Positions 18,787 through 46,237 of a stretch of DNA of 64,000 bases are shown piece by piece. A program made the translations under genes and the position numbers. Numbering within the stretch: the stretch's first letter is position 1; each line of letters starts with the position of its first letter. The stretch covers positions 67,190-131,189 of the forward strand of contig JACKAH010000003.1 of the NCBI GenBank assembly GCA_020635175.1. Direction: 5' to 3'. This stretch comes from Deltaproteobacteria bacterium. GTDB taxonomy: Bacteria; Bdellovibrionota_C; UBA2361; J135. The notes under the pieces were generated by a model. That model was not told the origin of the DNA. It saw only the letters and a program-made list of their open reading frames with translations, and made no database searches.

Positions 18787-18879
18787 GTGCGCAGCGAGCT
18801 GCGCACCACTTAAATCTTCCCCCGCTTGCGGGGGAGCAAAGCGCCCTCAATAATTCCTCCCCCCCATTTATGGGGGAGG
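18787..18879 (+). terminator. Three consecutive GC-rich hairpins downstream of rpsA, none followed by a U-tract
   Basis: gtgcgcag-cgag-ctgcgcac (18787-18806); cccccg-cttg-cggggg (about 18817-18836); cctccccc/gggggagg (18856-18879). Confidence 0.5.
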
Positions 18880-19022
18880 GGGACGCTCAAGTCAGATTTT
18901 GACTCCCTATTCTCTCCACTACCCACCTTTGCATAAGATCCTAATCACTAGTAAAATATTGTTGTGTTGGCAGTACATGGGGGCCTAATGGCTAGTTGTT
19001 GTAGTTTAAGGAGTAGTACCCC

Positions 19023-20012
19023 ATGCACGAACCAAGCAAGCACCCAGTGCTTAATGCAGACCCATTTCCAGGTCACCCAGATTTCAACGGTCCCTTAACC
19101 CTAGAAACACAAAGTTACGAAAGAATAGAGTTAGCTGGAGATCCTCCATATCAAGACTCTTTGCGCTACGGTATTGAGGTAGCAGACGGCTCGGGTGAAA
19201 CAGTTATCTTAAAAGTAAAAGGTGTTGAACTCTTTGTTGATCCAGGAACTGAGTACGAAGAGCTACACGGTCAGTTTAAAGATTGCGAATTTAACGTTCT
19301 CTCTAGAAATTATGAAAGAGACTTCCTCCAAGCCAATGCTGAATTCTATGCCTGTGTAGCTGGCAGAATACATCAGGTCACGGCATGTTGTCCTAGGTTA
19401 GATGTGCTTTCTATCGCTGCAGGTCAAGGCTATGAGCTAGATACTGTCTTTGCGCGCGGAAGAGAGGGGAAATTTTTGGGCTTAGATCCTAGTGAGCAGA
19501 TGTTAAGGGTACTTGAAGGCAAAGATGATAGATACCCAGAGACTGCAATCCATACCAGGGTTGCCCGAGCACATGCATTGTTAGAGGAGCACGTAAGAGA
19601 AGATATCATTGATACAATAGGAAGACCTACGTTAGTCACATGTGTCGCAGGTTTGCATGTCATCGATAAGACAGGTCGTAGTGAAGGAGATGCTCTTGGT
19701 AAACAGGTTCGTCCAATTCTAGCGGCTGTTGTTGATATGATGCAGAGTGGTGGGTTTATCGTAGTTGGAAATTACTACCATAAAACGGATGCTGATTATG
19801 AGCGTTTTGCCCAAATTTGGCATGATAAACAAGTTGCTAATGGCGTTGCAAATCCACATCAGCCAACACCACCAAATAAGTTATTTACTCCGCAACAGAT
19901 GGGAAGAATGTTGGAAGGTCTTGGTCTGAATGTTGACAGAATGTCTCCGAACGATGATGTAATGTGTAGTACGGGAATTCGGGGCTATGTCATGGTGGCG
20001 CGTAAGCTTTGA
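19023..20012 (+). CDS. Class I SAM-dependent methyltransferase-like protein, paralog A, with an unrecognised N-terminal domain
   Basis: Motif I VLSIAAGQGYELD, post-I FLGLDPS, GGFIVVGNYY. N-terminal block DPFPGHPDFNGPL is shared with the next gene. Confidence 0.7.
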   Translation: MHEPSKHPVLNADPFPGHPDFNGPLTLETQSYERIELAGDPPYQDSLRYGIEVADGSGETVILKVKGVELFVDPGTEYEELHGQFKDCEFNVLSRNYERDFLQANAEFYACVAGRIHQVTACCPRLDVLSIAAGQGYELDTVFARGREGKFLGLDPSEQMLRVLEGKDDRYPETAIHTRVARAHALLEEHVREDIIDTIGRPTLVTCVAGLHVIDKTGRSEGDALGKQVRPILAAVVDMMQSGGFIVVGNYYHKTDADYERFAQIWHDKQVANGVANPHQPTPPNKLFTPQQMGRMLEGLGLNVDRMSPNDDVMCSTGIRGYVMVARKL

Positions 20013-20101
20013 TACTTTTTGCTTAAGAAAGCATTATTTTTAAATTGGTGTGTTGTTTGGCCTGGGGATTAACGGCTAGAGATAATGTGTTGTAGGACCC
20101 C

Positions 20102-21166
20102 ATGCAATTGTCACACGAAGAATTGGATCTTCTTTTAGAAACAGATCTTTTCCCTGGACATCCAGATTTTCAAGGCCCTCTGCTTGAGGGAACAGAGACA
20201 TTTGAGCTTAGAGACCTGTCATCTTATCTCCGGTATGAGACGGCTTTGGCGAACGCAAAACAAGATGCAACATATTCAGGGAAGCCGCTTATTGTAAGGT
20301 ATAGTGACGTCGAACTTTTGGTTGAGCCTGGTAGTAACTACCCTGAGCTGCGTGATAGATTTAGAGGAAGAGAGTTTCGCCAATTTTCTGATGCATACGA
20401 TCGTGATTATATAAAACCTCTCGCACTATTTTATGACAGAGTTAGTGGAGCTATTGAAAGACACATCTCCGATTCAAGAGAAAATAGCGTACTATCAATC
20501 GGTGCAGGGACTGGATTTGAACTGGAAAGTGCATTTCAAGATAGGCATTCACGTGGGACATGGGGGGTGTTTTTGGGTGTCGATCCTAGTTCTCGAAGCC
20601 TTAGAATTCTCGAGAAAAAAGCAGAGGCTTTTGAAAGAGTTGTAACGCATACACGCATTGCAAGTGCACATTCTTTAAAAGTAGAAGAAGTACGTCAGGA
20701 TATTATAAACACTATTGGTCTTCCAACCCTGGTTACTTGTATCAGAGCACTTAACGAAATTGATGCAACCAATAGACAGCCTGGTGATGATTTAGGGGCA
20801 CGATTGATACCTATGCTTAGAGCGCTTAAAAATCTTACCTGCTCAGTTCATGGCACTATTATCATTGCAGATCTCTACTTTCAGAATGAGGAAGCTTATC
20901 AGAGATATGCGGAAAATTTTAGACAGAGCCCGCTAGATAAAGGGTCTCATGAACCTGTAAACCCAAAACTACCTGAAGAACTTCTCATGCCAAAACAGGT
21001 AGGCTATCTTTTGGAACGTTCAGGTTTCTTAGTTAATAACATCAGTTATTGCCACTCTGACTCAGGAGTAAGTGGCTACGTGATAGAAGCCGTTCGTCCA
21101 GTTACTTTCCCATTCTATGTAAATCTGGAAGAAAGGTGGGAAATGACAGAGATTCCTCAAAGCTAG
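20102..21166 (+). CDS. Class I SAM-dependent methyltransferase-like protein, paralog B
   Basis: Motif I VLSIGAGTGFELE, post-I FLGVDPS, N-terminal DLFPGHPDFQGPL; colinear with paralog A. Confidence 0.7.
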   Translation: MQLSHEELDLLLETDLFPGHPDFQGPLLEGTETFELRDLSSYLRYETALANAKQDATYSGKPLIVRYSDVELLVEPGSNYPELRDRFRGREFRQFSDAYDRDYIKPLALFYDRVSGAIERHISDSRENSVLSIGAGTGFELESAFQDRHSRGTWGVFLGVDPSSRSLRILEKKAEAFERVVTHTRIASAHSLKVEEVRQDIINTIGLPTLVTCIRALNEIDATNRQPGDDLGARLIPMLRALKNLTCSVHGTIIIADLYFQNEEAYQRYAENFRQSPLDKGSHEPVNPKLPEELLMPKQVGYLLERSGFLVNNISYCHSDSGVSGYVIEAVRPVTFPFYVNLEERWEMTEIPQS

Positions 21167-25475: not shown

Positions 25476-26452
25476 TATTGCCAAAGAATCAGTCAGCTTT
25501 AATTGAAGAAATTTACTCAATCTCTAAAAGCAATTCTGTCGAGCTGTTTTTAGTTGGCGGTTTCCTGCGTGATTCTTTATTGGATATCGAGTCCCTTGAT
25601 TATGATTTTGTTGTTGAGGGAGATGCGATTAAGTTTGCAGAAACTTTAAAGGCAGAGATTGGTGGAGAACTGAAATCTTTTGCAAGCTTTGGAACTGCAA
25701 AGTTAGTTAACTTTAATTTTGAGTCCTCAATTTATGAGCTTGATTTTGCAATGGCTCGAGAGGAAAGCTATGCACATCCGGGCGCATTGCCTACGGTTGT
25801 CTCGGGCAAGCTAGAGAGCGATCTGCAAAGACGAGACTTTACAATTAATTCTATGGCGATTGCTCTGAGGGATATTGTTGAGAGTTTGAATGCAGAGCTA
25901 ACATTAAAAGAGCTAATTAGAGCGAAATTGCTGGATCCTTTTGGTGGTCTGTTAGATTTAGATCAGAAACTCATACGAATCTTGCATGACTTAAGCTTTC
26001 AAGATGATCCCACTCGCATTTTTCGTGCCTATCGCTATTTAGTGAGGATAGGGGGAGAGCTAGAACAACACACTGCAAAACTTCTACAGACAGCTCTCAA
26101 AGATTGCGCACTGCAAAATATCTCTGTGTTTAGAATCTATAATGAGTTTAAGAAAATAGCATTAGAGCAAAATCCAAGCAGAGTCTTTGCCGAGCTTTTA
26201 AAGCATGGAGTCCTTGCTGGTTGCGGATGGTTTTCAAAGAAAAGTGGCGAGAAATTTTGCCAGGCGGTAGAGCTCTCAAACAATCTCTCTGAAGATTTAC
26301 CTTTAATACTTTTAGCTAGCATTGATCAGGTCAAGGCTGAGGCTGCATTGAAAGAGATGCGCTTTAAGAGTAAAGAAATTTCCGCTTTCAAAAATCAGAT
26401 TACACAATCATCTGACTCAGTTCTAATTTCATTTCTAAATGAGTGTAAATGA
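25472..26452 (+). CDS. Poly(A) polymerase / CCA-adding enzyme family nucleotidyltransferase (short)
   Basis: LVGGFLRDSLL, DYDF and RRDFTINSMA head-domain motifs; ATGA overlap with the upstream gene. Confidence 0.8.
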   Translation: MILPKNQSALIEEIYSISKSNSVELFLVGGFLRDSLLDIESLDYDFVVEGDAIKFAETLKAEIGGELKSFASFGTAKLVNFNFESSIYELDFAMAREESYAHPGALPTVVSGKLESDLQRRDFTINSMAIALRDIVESLNAELTLKELIRAKLLDPFGGLLDLDQKLIRILHDLSFQDDPTRIFRAYRYLVRIGGELEQHTAKLLQTALKDCALQNISVFRIYNEFKKIALEQNPSRVFAELLKHGVLAGCGWFSKKSGEKFCQAVELSNNLSEDLPLILLASIDQVKAEAALKEMRFKSKEISAFKNQITQSSDSVLISFLNECK

Positions 26453-27663
26453 CTCAGTATTCACTTTCGTATTTAGAAGAATCTATTAAACAAGCTGCGC
26501 TTAAGTTGTGGCCAGAGATTAATCACGAACCACATTTTTATCCTCTACTTGATTTAAATCTCGGAGATGTTTGCTGTGATTACTGTATTGAGCTTTCAAC
26601 TCTATTGAAACGTTCACCAAAAACTTTACAGAGAGAACTTGTACAGAACCTGCCTGAAGATTTCCCTTTTTGTCTCTGCATGCATGACGGTTATCTAAAT
26701 TATAGATATCACTTGAATGAAGGTAATTTTTCTGAGTTTTTGAGTGGATTAGATGGTTTTCAACCACAGGCAGAAATTTATGATGCATTGATTCTCACAC
26801 CACCTGTGAAGAACTGTTTTGGTTTGTCTTATTTAAGACTAGCAGCCAGGGCAATCTACCACTTCTCATTGTTAAGAAGTTCTGGAAGTCAGGTTAAATT
26901 TTTTCTCGGAAACACTCTACTAGAGGTTGATAGTAGTCAAGTTTTTGATCAAAACCTCTTTATGAATTTATCAAAGTTGGCCTTTGGTGAGCCGATTACT
27001 CAGGCTGAGGCAGTTGACCAGGTTGTTGAGTGTTTAGCTTCTGGTAAGTTTGATAAAAGTTTTATTTGCTCATCTGGGCAAATTTTAGAGCACAACCTTT
27101 TTGAAAACCTGAAGTCTGAATACAACACAAAGTTACGTTTCCCTAAAAACTTCTGGCTTAATACTGATACTGCAACGTTGAGGGATGCTGAAAAACTAGT
27201 CCAGACCTTGAATACAAAAGATTTATTCTTTCACCTGTTGCTACCATATCATGGACAAGATCTAAGCTTTGATGCCATAGGGCTGAAGTGTCGAGATAAT
27301 TTACCTTGGTATTTTGCATCTAGCCTCGAAAGATTAAAACGTTTTAGCTCTAAGCAGAGCATAGCTGAAGCTGAGATGATAAATTTTGAGCAGCTAGAAC
27401 CTAATTTCCTACAACTTCTAAAGCGTCTCTGCTTTATGAAATCCTTGGTAGAGGAGCTTCGAAGGAATGGAGAGGTAGAGTCATTTGTTGAGATAGTTTT
27501 GGAGCTCTTAGACCAAATCAACAGGATGGTTAATAATCCAAGTTTTCGGCAATCTGTTGAGCGTAGGGATCTTTCGTATTTTGAAGAGCTGCTACTGACT
27601 AGAAGTATTTGTACTTTAGAGCATTTAGCCCCATTCTTCTCCCTTGATAATACGAGGTTTTGA
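26449..27663 (+). CDS. Hypothetical protein; N-terminus tentatively resembles the ArgRS N-terminal add-on domain, without the catalytic core
   Basis: Coupled ORF (ATGA overlap). GD..CDYCIELSTLLKRSPKTLQRELV recalls the GDyatN.a..LAK.lk..P..iA pattern of ArgRS N-termini; no HIGH or KMSK motif seen. Confidence 0.45.
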   Translation: MTQYSLSYLEESIKQAALKLWPEINHEPHFYPLLDLNLGDVCCDYCIELSTLLKRSPKTLQRELVQNLPEDFPFCLCMHDGYLNYRYHLNEGNFSEFLSGLDGFQPQAEIYDALILTPPVKNCFGLSYLRLAARAIYHFSLLRSSGSQVKFFLGNTLLEVDSSQVFDQNLFMNLSKLAFGEPITQAEAVDQVVECLASGKFDKSFICSSGQILEHNLFENLKSEYNTKLRFPKNFWLNTDTATLRDAEKLVQTLNTKDLFFHLLLPYHGQDLSFDAIGLKCRDNLPWYFASSLERLKRFSSKQSIAEAEMINFEQLEPNFLQLLKRLCFMKSLVEELRRNGEVESFVEIVLELLDQINRMVNNPSFRQSVERRDLSYFEELLLTRSICTLEHLAPFFSLDNTRF

Positions 27664-39796: not shown

Positions 39797-41041
39797 ATGG
39801 AAAGGGTAGCAATAATCGGCGGAACTCGAACCCCATTTGTTAAAGCTGGCAGTGCGTTTGCAAAACATACAGCTTTAGATATGGCTAAGCATTCAGTTAC
39901 AAGTCTTGTTAAAAAGTTAGAACTTAAACCAGATGGTATTGATGAGTTGATCTATAGCTCTGTGCTGCTTGATCCACGTTTGCCAAACTTTGCGCGTGAA
40001 ATTGTCCTACGGACAGATCTGCCAAACAGCATTAATGCGCACTTTGTATCTAACAACTGTATTAGTGGTTTAGTTGCACTAAACTTTCTTTCTGATGGAA
40101 TTAAAACTGGAAGGATAAAGTGCGGAATTGGTGGAGGTGTAGAGAGTATGTCACTTCCAACTCTGACCATGAACCCAAAAGGGGAGCGTTGGTTTATTAA
40201 TCTATCTAGAGCTAGAAGCATGGGACAGAAGTTGAGCTTGCTTGCAAAATTTCGTCCTGGATTTTTAGCACCGAGACCTCCTAGTCCTAAAGAGCCATCT
40301 ACAGGCCTTACTATGGGGCAGCATATGGAGATCACTGCACAGAAGTTAGCAATTCCTAGAGCTGAGCAAGATAAGATTGCATACAATAGTCATATCAATG
40401 CAGCCCAGGCACAAAGCTCTAATTTCTTAGCAGAGGAGATCTCTGCCTTAGATGGAGTTGCGCAGGATAATATTATTCGAGCAAATACTTCGATTGAAAA
40501 ACTGGCTACGTTAAAACCGGTCTTTGAACGAAGTGACAAGGGTACACTCACGGCTGGTAATTCAAGTCCACTAACGGATGGAGCTTCTGCCGTTTGTTTG
40601 ATGTCTGAATCAAGGGCAAAGGCTGAAGGTCGTAAGATTTTGGCCTTCATTGAGGCGATTGAATTCTCGGCAGTTGATCCAAATGATGGATTATTGATGG
40701 CCCCGGCTTTGGCTTTGCCGAGATTGCTTAGAAACAATAACTTAAAAGTTTCTGATATCGACCTTTTTGAAATTCATGAGGCATTTGCTGCTCAGGTCCT
40801 AGCTAACATGCAAGCATGGGAGCAGGGTTTTTTAGGAGAAGCGCCTATCGGTCGTTTGGATCAATCTAAAGTCAATATTAATGGTGGTTCTATCGCTATT
40901 GGCCATCCGTTCGCTGCAACAGGTGGCAGACTAATTACTTCTTTAGCTCATTCCCTTCAGAGAAATGGGGCTGATAGAGGGGTGATAAGCGTCTGTGCAG
41001 CCGGTGCCATGGCTGCTGCCGTATTATTATCAAAAGAATAA
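39797..41041 (+). CDS. Acetyl-CoA acetyltransferase / 3-ketoacyl-CoA thiolase
   Basis: Thiolase motifs NNCISGL (active Cys), NGGSIAIGHPFAATGGRL, C-terminal VCAAGAM. Confidence 0.9.
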   Translation: MERVAIIGGTRTPFVKAGSAFAKHTALDMAKHSVTSLVKKLELKPDGIDELIYSSVLLDPRLPNFAREIVLRTDLPNSINAHFVSNNCISGLVALNFLSDGIKTGRIKCGIGGGVESMSLPTLTMNPKGERWFINLSRARSMGQKLSLLAKFRPGFLAPRPPSPKEPSTGLTMGQHMEITAQKLAIPRAEQDKIAYNSHINAAQAQSSNFLAEEISALDGVAQDNIIRANTSIEKLATLKPVFERSDKGTLTAGNSSPLTDGASAVCLMSESRAKAEGRKILAFIEAIEFSAVDPNDGLLMAPALALPRLLRNNNLKVSDIDLFEIHEAFAAQVLANMQAWEQGFLGEAPIGRLDQSKVNINGGSIAIGHPFAATGGRLITSLAHSLQRNGADRGVISVCAAGAMAAAVLLSKE

Positions 41042-41051
41042 ATCTCTCATA

Positions 41052-41098
41052 AAAGGGGACAGTTCCTATTTTGCTGAGAAATAGGAACTGTCCCCTTT
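41052..41098. terminator. Perfect 20-bp stem hairpin after the thiolase gene (bidirectional terminator-like)
   Basis: aaaggggacagttcctattt-tgctgag-aaataggaactgtccccttt, with A/T runs on both flanks. Confidence 0.8.
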
Positions 41099-41227
41099 AA
41101 ATGGTGAGTGGGGGGATCTCCCATTGATGCTTGCTGCACCAGAGAGATCCCCCCACGTTGTTGTTCGCCACGAACCTTCGACCTCATCCCCCGCAGGGAG
41201 GATTCAGTCAGAAACCGCAGAGAGGGC

Positions 41228-42508
41228 TCAGGCCTGGGCGGGGTGCTCGCTCAGCGCAGACCGCACCTCGTCATCCGTGAGCATCCGGCCGACCTGCTGG
41301 GCTCGGCTGATCACTGCAGCGCAGGCCTCATCGCTCGGGACTTCGAGTCCGAGCTGACTCGCGAAGAAGCGCACGTTGCTCCTGCCGCTCATCGGCGTCA
41401 CCACGATCTCGTGATCGCGTCCGACCAGGGCAGCCGGCACACCGGAGTAGACCAGGTCACGTAGTTCGGGGTTGCCTGCCGCCTTGATGATCGCCGCGGC
41501 ATGCACGCCGGTGCCGGTCTTGAACGCGTCACCACCGATCACCGGCAAGCTGTGGGTGATCGGAACGCCGAGGATCCGGGAGGCAGTCTGGCAGTAGGTC
41601 TGCAGTCCGGTCAGCTCCCGCTCCCAGAACCCCATCAGCGCGAGGTTCGCCAGGAGCAGCTCGGTCTCCAGGTTGCCCGAGCGCTCACCGACACCGAGGG
41701 CGCAGCTGTGGATGCGGCTGGCTCCGCACTCGAGCGCCATCAGGGCGTTGGCCAGGGCCAGCCCACGATCGCGGTGACCGTGCCAGTCGATCTCGATGTC
41801 CTCGTAGCCATTGCGCTCGAGGAAGTTGATGACCCAGGCCATCAGGTTCCGGACACCGCGCGGACCGACCCGTCCACAGGTGTCACACAACACGAGTCGC
41901 TTGCAGCCGTTCTGGATCGCCGCGTTGAAGAGCACCTCCAGATCGCCGGGATGAGAGCCGGTGGTGTCCTCAGTGACGAAGGGGAGATCGACGTTGAGCA
42001 CCCGTGCGCTCTGCTGCGCATCGACGACCTGAGCGACGAGTCGGCTGAGATCCCAGTCCTCGACCTGCTGTCGGATGCGAGAAGAGCCGAGGAAGCCATA
42101 GCCCTGAAGTCTGATGCCGTGACGGTCCTGCAGCGCGGCGACGGTATCGACATGCTTGGCGAGCTGGAAGATGGCGAGGCCCGGCACGTGGGTCCATCCG
42201 GCACGCACATGCTCAGCGAGCAGCGCGCTGATAGCGACCGTGTTCGCGCCGTCGAGCCCATCGACGGGCAGCCCGTAGTCGACGGAGTGGATCCCGAGAC
42301 CCTCCATCAGGCCGAGAAGCTCGATGCGCTCAGCGACAGAAGGCATCGTGATGCTCGGGTTCTGGCAGCCGTCGCGGATCGTCTCCTCGAAGATCTCGAT
42401 AGATGGATCTTCGGCGAAGGTGACGAACCTTGGATCAGCAGGTTGCTTGCTGTCCCAGGGATAGATCAGATCTGCTGGTTGCAGACCGCTCAATCGGTCG
42501 TGAGTCAT
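41228..42508 (-). CDS. HMGL-like (2-isopropylmalate / homocitrate / citramalate synthase family) protein in a high-GC island
   Basis: EETIRDGCQNP (TLRDGxQ-like), DTCGR, HGHRDRGLALANALMAL and GVGERSGNLETE motifs; strongly G/C-biased third codon positions. Confidence 0.85.
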   Translation of the reverse strand: MTHDRLSGLQPADLIYPWDSKQPADPRFVTFAEDPSIEIFEETIRDGCQNPSITMPSVAERIELLGLMEGLGIHSVDYGLPVDGLDGANTVAISALLAEHVRAGWTHVPGLAIFQLAKHVDTVAALQDRHGIRLQGYGFLGSSRIRQQVEDWDLSRLVAQVVDAQQSARVLNVDLPFVTEDTTGSHPGDLEVLFNAAIQNGCKRLVLCDTCGRVGPRGVRNLMAWVINFLERNGYEDIEIDWHGHRDRGLALANALMALECGASRIHSCALGVGERSGNLETELLLANLALMGFWERELTGLQTYCQTASRILGVPITHSLPVIGGDAFKTGTGVHAAAIIKAAGNPELRDLVYSGVPAALVGRDHEIVVTPMSGRSNVRFFASQLGLEVPSDEACAAVISRAQQVGRMLTDDEVRSALSEHPAQA

Positions 42509-43699: not shown

Positions 43700-44560
43700 A
43701 TGCCTGTAACCTTAGGATCGAATATATTGTCCCTCAACTCCCAGAGGAGATTGAGTGAGACAACCGACAAGCTAGGGAGCATCTATGAGAAATTGAGTTC
43801 TGGTCAGAGAATCAGCCGAGCTCGAGACGATGGTGCCGGTCTAGCAATCGCAGAAAACCTTAAAGCTGACCAACGTATTGCTACCGTTGCGATAAGAAAC
43901 GCAAACGACGGTATCTCAATCGTTGCAATCACAGACTCAGCTCTTGAGCAGATTGGTAATACTCTTACCCGTCTAGCAGAGCTTGCTGAGCAGTCGGCAA
44001 ACGGTATCTTTACACCACAACAACGTTCAGCACTTCAGAACGAGTTCGTCGCTCTGAGTTCAGAAATTGAGCGTATTGCGGTAACAACAAATTTTAACGG
44101 AGTGGCACTGCTCTCTGGTAATGCGACTGTAGCGTTCCAGGTTGGTTTTGATAACCAATCAACATCGCTCATCTCGTATAACGGAGTGGCGGGTACGCTA
44201 GCCTCACTAGGGCTTGCTACAACTGGCTCATCCAATCTTAACTTTTCAATCAACGCCTCAACAGCTGCGGCTGGTCAGAGTGCTGCTCAAGCTGCTCTTC
44301 AAGCAGTTAAAGCGGCGATTTCATCTCTGAACACCAACCGTGGTACGCTTGGTGCGGCTGAAGCTCGACTAAACGTTGCTATTAGTAACCTATCTGTAGC
44401 ACGTGAGAACTTCGCAGCTGCGGAAAGCCGTATCCGAGATGTTGACGTAGCGCAAGCTGCTGCTGAATTGACAAGAATCTCGATTCTACAGCAGGCTGGA
44501 GCATCTGTGCTAGCACAGGCTAACCAGCAGCCGTCAATCGCGCTACAGCTACTAGGATAA
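43700..44560 (+). CDS. fliC: Flagellin (short, 286 aa, no large variable domain)
   Basis: LSSGQRISRARDDGAGLAIAENL N-terminal and ILQQAGASVLAQANQQPSIALQLL C-terminal flagellin motifs. Confidence 0.95.
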   Translation: MPVTLGSNILSLNSQRRLSETTDKLGSIYEKLSSGQRISRARDDGAGLAIAENLKADQRIATVAIRNANDGISIVAITDSALEQIGNTLTRLAELAEQSANGIFTPQQRSALQNEFVALSSEIERIAVTTNFNGVALLSGNATVAFQVGFDNQSTSLISYNGVAGTLASLGLATTGSSNLNFSINASTAAAGQSAAQAALQAVKAAISSLNTNRGTLGAAEARLNVAISNLSVARENFAAAESRIRDVDVAQAAAELTRISILQQAGASVLAQANQQPSIALQLLG

Positions 44561-45376: not shown

Positions 45377-46237
45377 ATGGCAGTTACCATTGGTAATAAC
45401 ATCGCGTCTCTGACAGCTCAACGAAGATTAGGATCTTCTACTGAAAAACTTCAGAGCACCTACGAAAAACTAAGCTCAGGTCAACGTATTAACAAAGCAT
45501 CAGACGATGCTGCGGGTTTAGCGATTGCAGACTCATTAAGAGCGGACTCGCGAATCGCCCAAGTGGCAATCCGTAATGCGAATGACGGTATATCAGTAAC
45601 GAACATCGCTGACTCAGCATTAGGTGAGATCGGTAACGTTCTTACTCGTATGGCGGAACTAGCTGAACAATCTGCAAACGGTGTACTTAGTGTAACTCAG
45701 CGTTCTGCGCTAGCTACTGAATTTGGTGCACTTGCTTCGGAAATCGAGCGTATCGCTGTTACAACTACGTTTAACGGTGTAAACTTGCTTTCTGGTGGAG
45801 CTAGTATTGCCTTCCAGGTAGGTTTCGATAGTCAGTCGACATCACAAATTTCATATAACGGAGTACAAGGAACTCTTGCAGCTTTAGGGCTTGCATCTTC
45901 AGGTTCTTCGTCTCTAAACTTTTCTATTAACGCTTCAACAGCTGCTGCAGGTCAAAGTGCCTCAGTGAACGCTCTTGATGCGGTTAAAGCAGCGATTAAC
46001 TCGCTTACTTCTACTCGAGGTACGCTAGGTGCTGCTTCTACTCGACTAAGTGTGGCAATCAACAACCTGACTGTTGCGAGAGAGAACTTCCTATCTGCGG
46101 AATCTCGAATTCGTGACGTAGACGTTGCTGCAGAAGCTGCTGAGTTAACACGACTCACAATTCTACAGCAGGCAGGTGCTGCGGTTCTGACTCAGGCGAA
46201 TCAGCAACCAACACTAGCATTGTCACTATTATCATAA
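45377..46237 (+). CDS. fliC: Flagellin paralog (286 aa)
   Basis: Colinear and gap-free with the first flagellin; same terminal flagellin motifs. Confidence 0.95.
   Translation: MAVTIGNNIASLTAQRRLGSSTEKLQSTYEKLSSGQRINKASDDAAGLAIADSLRADSRIAQVAIRNANDGISVTNIADSALGEIGNVLTRMAELAEQSANGVLSVTQRSALATEFGALASEIERIAVTTTFNGVNLLSGGASIAFQVGFDSQSTSQISYNGVQGTLAALGLASSGSSSLNFSINASTAAAGQSASVNALDAVKAAINSLTSTRGTLGAASTRLSVAINNLTVARENFLSAESRIRDVDVAAEAAELTRLTILQQAGAAVLTQANQQPTLALSLLS

Follow-up and report, generated by a model that had tools for sequence, protein, structure and literature searches.

Two unevenly diverged, tandemly duplicated class I methyltransferase-like genes inserted between rpsA and a receiver-mutS block in a deep Bdellovibrionota lineage

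Glycine-sarcosine and sarcosine-dimethylglycine N-methyltransferases are adjacent, diverged class I paralogs that are encoded on one strand and act in sequence, and methyltransferases of the METTL3-METTL14 and Trm61-Trm6 type pair a catalytic subunit with a degenerate paralog. Among the small-molecule enzymes of the class, His120 of CouO, which has a homologous residue in NovO, is the proposed general base (PMC5289526), and His122 of CysG, in the same place, helps to bind the catalytic metal (PMC11408123). Here we describe two adjacent genes, paralogs A and B, in a 64,000-nucleotide (nt) stretch of contig JACKAH010000003.1 (assembly GCA_020635175.1; the stretch is called the window below), where they lie between rpsA and mutS. 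Judged by their sequences, A and B are old, unevenly diverged products of a tandem duplication, and a profile search together with a predicted structure of B places both in the class I S-adenosylmethionine (SAM)-dependent methyltransferase fold, among enzymes with small-molecule substrates. On balance we favor, with some reserve, the view that they are two co-regulated, functionally diverged SAM-dependent methyltransferases with small-molecule substrates. The genes and the motifs used in comparing them are as follows, in window positions:

19023-20012, + strand: paralog A, an open reading frame (ORF) of 329 amino acids (aa); the slower-diverging copy, a putative long-form orphan class I SAM methyltransferase
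20102-21166, + strand: paralog B, an ORF of 354 aa; the fast-evolving copy
19059-19097, + strand: FPGHPDF block in A
20144-20182, + strand: FPGHPDF block in B
19404-19430, + strand: motif I of A, VLSIAAGQG, with the first Gly lost
20489-20515, + strand: motif I of B, VLSIGAGTG, with GxGxG intact
19656-19658, + strand: codon of the family-invariant His212, retained in A
20753-20755, + strand: codon of Asn218 of B, in place of the family-invariant His

An earlier note on this DNA had described A and B as adjacent, same-strand ORFs that align colinearly over their full length. Their exact coordinates were confirmed, and a BLASTP alignment of 317 residues (E = 7e-75; 8 gapped positions) showed 39% identical and 59% positive positions, so that the deep divergence claimed in the note stands while the identity is slightly higher than its ‘about one third’. 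Both start codons are the first possible ones after an in-frame stop, leaving no room for an upstream extension. Identity at third codon positions is 0.314 (0.284 expected by chance), as compared to 56% and 62% at positions 1 and 2, and synonymous sites are saturated, with dS undefined by NG86 and estimated at 2.4 by LWL85 (dN 0.61). With both reading frames intact and a dN/dS of about 0.25 (LWL85), the duplication is old and both copies are under purifying selection, because synonymous sites are saturated while the frames have been kept; this agrees with the note's proposal of an old duplication whose two copies were both retained. The motifs that it quoted are also present, including FLGLDPS in A and FLGVDPS in B, PTLVTC in both, and the FPGHPDF blocks at the positions listed above. 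Within the longer D[PL]FPGHPDF[NQ]GPL block, 9 of the 11 residues that are identical between A and B are encoded by different codons, and the block has therefore been kept by protein-level selection, not by (recent) gene conversion.

Divergence after the duplication is asymmetric, with A conservative and B fast. The two proteins are sisters in a neighbor-joining (NJ) tree and share indels, and in motif I both have Ser for Asp and Ala for Cys; neither the indels nor these substitutions are found elsewhere in the family. Identity to the long-form relatives P0003, P0004 and P0005, taken over core columns, is 38%, 35% and 36% for A, similar to its closeness to B, and just 26%, 24% and 28% for B, which sits on a long branch of the NJ tree. 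The window holds another duplication, of two flagellin genes (43700-44560 and 45377-46237; 286 aa each) that are 74% identical and lie about 800 nt apart on the same strand, and this event is much younger than that of the methyltransferase pair.

The suggestion that A and B are methyltransferase-like was borne out at the level of the superfamily. Their relatives match Pfam Methyltransf_23/12/25/11 with E-values down to 1.8e-14, and a profile of all ten family sequences matches solved class I methyltransferases in a search of Protein Data Bank (PDB) sequences, including 3HNR, 3DTN, NovO and ToxA. Taken singly, neither A (12.8-19.7 bits) nor B (15.6-16.8 bits) reached the cut-offs of Pfam Methyltransf_23/25/12/11 (21.2-30 bits), NCBIfam gave only faint UbiE-like matches below cut-off, and phmmer found no significant match to either among PDB sequences. 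We modeled B with AlphaFold2 on the ten-sequence alignment (pLDDT 81.8, pTM 0.72), an alignment of the pair only having given an unusable model (pLDDT 38.6). The model consists of a low-confidence segment (residues 1-30) that contains the FPGHPDF block, a beta(35-38)-alpha(45-59)-beta(63-67)-beta(70-74) unit, two long cap helices at 80-122 and a Rossmann-type core, followed by an additional C-terminal tail of about 22 aa that is predicted with low confidence. When this monomer was compared with PDB structures by Foldseek, 479 matches had E <= 0.001, and the 50 matches listed are all SAM-dependent enzymes of the class I fold, almost all of them methyltransferases. These enzymes act on small molecules or tRNA, and include 3dtn (MM_2633), CysG, CmoA, NovO/CouO, Coq5, UbiG and histamine N-methyltransferase. 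The best target TM-scores are 0.65-0.71 over about 250 columns, which cover the core but not the N-terminal extension. For A, a seven-stranded alpha/beta fold is suggested by its 39% colinear identity with B.

The two copies differ in which conserved residues they keep. In motif I, where the relatives have D-x-G-C-G-T-G, B reads S-I-G-A-G-T-G and A reads S-I-A-A-G-Q-G, so that both have lost the acidic residue and A has lost the first Gly too; most glycines are retained in both. Both keep the motif II Asp that binds the SAM ribose, as D155 (A) and D161 (B) within G(L/V)DPS, in a column that is invariant across the family. Apart from its departure at the first motif I Gly (AAGQG), A retains the family-invariant His212, Lys216, Gly249 and Tyr251, while in B the corresponding residues are replaced (His by Asn218, Lys by Ala222, Gly by Ala256 and Tyr by Leu258), suggesting a changed substrate or chemistry. 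The invariant His lies after beta-4 and aligns with NovO His120 in the profile search. From this pattern, A looks like the copy with the ancestral function, and B like a copy with altered chemistry or without catalysis.

Both proteins carry an N-terminal extension, which the earlier note had put at about 110 aa and described as a private domain. We found it to be about 88 aa long: the short-form relatives begin at the F(D/N)xFAxxY cap-helix motif, and residues ~88-125 are cap helices that they also possess. HMMER alignments to P0003, P0004 and P0005 begin at profile positions 22, 45 and 50, so the beta-alpha-beta-beta unit is common to all long forms, leaving the FPGHPDF block as the one part peculiar to A and B; ‘private’ thus holds for the block and not for the unit. 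As the note had also proposed, the extension was not recognized as any described domain, with Pfam giving only DUF5635 at E = 0.16 and a word-indexed homolog search with the extension alone giving nothing even at E <= 10. By these sequence comparisons, the N-terminal element appears to match no described domain. Residues 10-60 of B (20129-20281) have a weak, non-significant likeness (E = 0.74) to PGTPDF...SSYLEY near the C-terminus of catechol O-methyltransferase. That the extension arose by duplication of the C-terminal part of the core, considered on account of this likeness and a similar predicted secondary structure, was rejected with an hhalign probability of 0.08% for extension against core.

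The family is very small. An exhaustive HMMER search with a profile built from A and B, run against 1.84 billion representative proteins, found 10 members. Besides A and B these are the long forms P0003-P0005 (three, about 315 aa each), the short forms P0006-P0009 (four, about 240 aa each, without the N-terminal extension) and a fragment, P0010; word-indexed homolog searches returned just the query itself and P0009. All members come from metagenome-assembled genomes (MAGs). Every relative found is single-copy at its locus, no neighbor recurs, no match in the HMMER search has the two matched stretches expected of a fusion, and scans of genomes and metagenomes found the pair in no second genome or contig. 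Near P0003 are PetG and cytochrome c genes, a cyanobacterium-like setting, P0004 is encoded beside tyrS and rpmG on a contig of 104 kb, and P0005 is on contigs of ~1.5 kb. Among the short forms, the gene for P0006 follows a NadE-like gene, that for P0007 follows a GNAT acetyltransferase gene, and P0015, a member of the P0009 cluster, lies amid unrelated genes. The remaining short form, P0008 (MCB9029788.1), is a canonical one from the same 141.7-kb contig and MAG as A (MCB9029846), outside the window (L090 2810-3535) and 58 accession numbers away. Its gene directly follows that of a SelU-like protein (AAA_SelU), and a pseudouridine synthase gene is nearby, a neighborhood that hints at tRNA modification; the SelU-like gene was rejected as a conserved partner as it is not repeated beside other relatives. 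Next to P0003 there is also a gene for a 234-aa secreted protein with a PEP-CTERM-like C-terminus and no Pfam match (L002 5127-5831; also L003-L005), and a gene for a 234-aa protein adjoins P0004. This neighbor was likewise rejected as a conserved partner, given that nothing comparable is found within the window.

The best relatives of the MutS protein encoded next to the pair are from Bdellovibrionota MAGs and only 44-51% identical, and the window therefore belongs to a deep, poorly sampled Bdellovibrionota lineage. In three relatives (L009, L010 and L011) the order of genes is cmk-rpsA-receiver(-)-mutS(-amiC), and rpsA and the receiver gene are separated by 190-790 nt. This confirms that the pair interrupts a housekeeping block, as previously noted, and identifies it as a lineage-specific insertion into the rpsA-receiver spacer. 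The pair does face the receiver gene (Pfam Response_reg), their 3' ends being convergent and 11 nt apart, but the receiver is not linked to the pair as had been suggested: the three relatives without the methyltransferase genes also have it beside mutS, and in the same orientation. It is the ancestral, divergently transcribed neighbor of mutS and not a partner of A and B. The spacer is variable in Bdellovibrionota, with an unrelated open frame of ~196 aa at L010 6900-7500 and a 16-nt unit, ACATTAGGCGCYACTG, repeated in tandem about four times at L009 2540-2640. The GC content at third codon positions (GC3) is host-like in both A (0.34) and B (0.30), so the insertion is not a recent one. No gene for an integrase, a transposase or any other mobility function was found in or beside the inserted segment, and 14-nt inverted repeats at 18917 and 21132, considered as its borders, were taken as chance (1 of 22 similar pairs in 3 kb). 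At its left edge is the following structure:

18787-18899, + strand: cluster of three GC-rich stem-loops right after the rpsA stop codon

The cluster has a predicted folding energy of -54.7 kcal/mol (z = -3.9; 1 of 200 shuffles folds as well), and its C5...G5 hairpins are unique within the 64 kb. Strong hairpins are also found directly 3' of rpsA in relatives, and the cluster is most likely an rpsA terminator or mRNA-stabilizing structure.

The two genes are also preceded by similar leaders, of which the elements are:

18922-19022, + strand: upstream region of A, with promoter-like TTTGCA (18928-18933) and TAAAAT (18952-18957); the leader runs into the ATG
within 18922-19022, + strand: leader motif of A, GTGTTG..TGGGG..TAATGGCTAG..TGTTGTAG..ACCCC
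20013-20101, + strand: A-B spacer of 89 nt, the upstream region of B, with promoter-like TTTGCT...TAAATT (falling short of the criteria of the scan)
within 20013-20101, + strand: leader motif of B, GTGTTG..TGGGG..TAACGGCTAG..TGTTGTAG..ACCCC

Over the ~70-100 nt upstream of each ATG, about 60% of the aligned columns are identical, a likeness that stands out against the saturated synonymous sites of the genes themselves. The local alignment score of 17.5 compares to 9.05 +/- 1.6 for dinucleotide shuffles (2 of 2000 reached it), and of 1911 random windows from the genome none scored as high. Conserved between the two leaders are TTTGC(A/T)TAAGA, ATTGnTGTGTTG, TGGGG, TAAyGGCTAG, TGTTGTAG and GTAGnACCCCATGCA, and in both leaders GGGG can pair with CCCC just upstream of the AUG. 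Within the window the composite motif has only these two sites; in 596 Gb of genomes it has one match, inside an unrelated coding region, and the leader of P0008, the third paralog in the genome, is not similar. No terminator-like site is predicted between A and B. A known RNA family was rejected, with no Rfam match at gathering thresholds across the window and, in a permissive scan, a chance CRISPR-DR match inside gene A only. The leaders are thus a candidate cis-regulatory element, and the safest conclusion from their likeness is that the duplicated unit probably took in its regulatory region and that both copies may still be under the same control.

In the explanation we favor, the ancestral gene would have been a long-form member of a very rare, uncharacterized clade of class I (Rossmann-fold) SAM-dependent methyltransferases, with a ~88-aa extension (a flexible FPGHPDF segment and the beta-alpha-beta-beta unit) and cap helices over a seven-stranded core. 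A whole transcription unit, comprising promoter-like region, leader and gene, would have been duplicated. A would then have retained the ancestral sequence and the invariant residues His, Lys and Tyr, which are putatively in the active site, and B would have exchanged these three and retained the glycine loop for SAM binding together with the ribose-binding Asp. The two proteins would both bind SAM, be switched on together via the shared leader, and work as separate enzymes on different acceptors or in successive steps of one small-molecule pathway. Several observations weigh against this explanation. With one genome only carrying the pair, retention across species cannot be shown, and the relatives, none of them characterized and sharing no neighbors, offer no clue to a substrate. 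SAM binding is not assured given the missing motif I acidic residue in both proteins and the missing first glycine in A, and neither protein reaches a Pfam or NCBIfam cut-off. For the leaders, there are only two sequences and no covariation, their folds (z = -0.9 and -1.3) are not significant when compared to shuffles, and the number of promoter-like sites is at chance level.

The main rival to separate enzymes is a heteromeric enzyme with A as the catalytic subunit and B as a degenerate structural, substrate-presenting or regulatory partner, which we regard as unlikely. It would account for the complementary losses, of the invariant His, Lys, Gly and Tyr in B and of the first motif I Gly in A, and the private, strictly conserved FPGHPDF block of both proteins could then be an interface; it would also fit the adjacency of the genes, their similar leaders and a spacer in which no terminator is predicted. 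However, A and B co-occur nowhere else, their relatives are all single-copy with none fused, and an intact GxGxG and ribose-binding Asp in B would be unexpected for a purely structural subunit. The same distribution bears on the two-component enzymatic module proposed in the earlier note and on the co-occurrence in related genomes that it would entail: with single-copy relatives, no fusion and no second genome with the pair, the duplication appears strain-specific, an outcome that the note itself had named as counting against its proposal, and the proposal is not supported. A heteromeric or sequential function is unsupported, and not favored over two independently acting enzymes. More doubtful still is a fuller version, in which an obligate heteromer of catalytic A and degenerate B, with FPGHPDF as interface or substrate lid, would be controlled by an undescribed leader RNA sensing a metabolite (SAM, S-adenosylhomocysteine (SAH) or a pathway product) through the GGGG-CCCC pairing before the AUG.

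That one or both copies are non-catalytic, whether as SAM- or SAH-binding proteins, as non-enzymatic proteins or as genes drifting to loss, we consider rather improbable. The scores of A and B under every curated methyltransferase threshold, which their relatives pass easily, point in this direction, as do the loss of the motif I Asp from both and the long branch of B, but both frames are intact despite saturated synonymous sites, dN/dS is ~0.25 (LWL85), and the motif II Asp, most of the glycines and the upstream regions have been conserved. We see little prospect for a pair of DNA- or RNA-modifying or anti-phage defense methyltransferases on a mobile island. A lineage-specific insertion, a weak match of A to PADLOC mad2 (E = 0.0022), the presence of CmoA, an enzyme of a tRNA pathway, among the fold matches and the location of the third same-genome paralog P0008 beside a SelU-like gene would all suit such a role, yet GC3 is host-like, no mobility gene accompanies the segment, A has no match among plasmids and phages, B has none in PADLOC, and the SelU neighborhood is not repeated for other relatives. 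Least credible is a signaling module with the adjacent receiver, for example a CheR-like methylation of a signaling component. Apart from the convergent 3' ends only 11 nt apart, the arrangement is largely refuted by synteny, since the receiver accompanies mutS in the same orientation in the three relatives without methyltransferases, and neither A nor B matches CheR or another signaling family. Two separate, co-regulated enzymes therefore remain the explanation to which we give most weight.

Elsewhere in the window, the segment at 39797-42508, with a thiolase gene and a convergent HMGL-like gene, has a GC content of 0.53 against ~0.41 for the window and may have been horizontally acquired. 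Downstream of a PolyA_pol/CCA-adding-like gene is a 404-aa ORF (26449-27663) with no Pfam match and a weak counterpart (21% identity) at the same position in L014.

If our explanation is correct, the locus is a clear case of asymmetric divergence after tandem duplication of a whole transcription unit including its leader, and it adds an uncharacterized subfamily with an unmatched N-terminal element to the largest methyltransferase superfamily. The pair gives no handle on a substrate, a pathway or an open question, and as the family is so rare (about ten sequences among 15 billion proteins) and occurs in MAGs only, experimental follow-up is of low priority.

When compared with described systems, the best profile and fold matches of A and B are to generic small-molecule class I methyltransferases (Methyltransf_23/25/12/11; 3DTN MM_2633 and 3HNR BT9727_4108), with which they share the predicted Rossmann-like fold and its cap helices at the N-terminus, a Gly-rich though partly altered motif I, and the acidic residue ending beta-2. 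They differ from these in the motif I change of Asp to Ser, in Pfam scores below cut-off and in the additional, unmatched extension of ~88 aa, and the two closest structures, 3DTN and 3HNR, are themselves of unknown function. The NovO/CouO C-methyltransferases and CysG/BelI O-methyltransferases have the fold in common at 13-16% identity. Where the former have the His120-Arg121 pair (PMC5289526), A has His212-Val and B has Asn218-Glu219, and of the His-His-Asp metal motif of the latter (PMC11408123), A lacks the second His and B lacks both; A and B are encoded outside any biosynthetic gene cluster. As the partner residues are absent, alignment of the invariant His locates the probable active site and does not indicate membership in either group. 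The best named model for the short forms, NF045667 (the DVU_1556 family of NCBIfam), matches 7 of the 10 family members, but at 26-50.2 bits, mostly over the motif I region, the relatives are well under its cut-off of 155 bits, and A and B have no match at E <= 1. To glycine-sarcosine and sarcosine-dimethylglycine N-methyltransferases there is no detected sequence relationship, with no pathway genes near A and B and the pair in no other genome, and this occurrence in one genome only also departs from the co-occurrence across genomes expected of paralogs of the METTL3-METTL14 or Trm61-Trm6 type. The pair thus adds a subfamily, new and very rare, to a well-known class of enzymes and is not a new kind of system.

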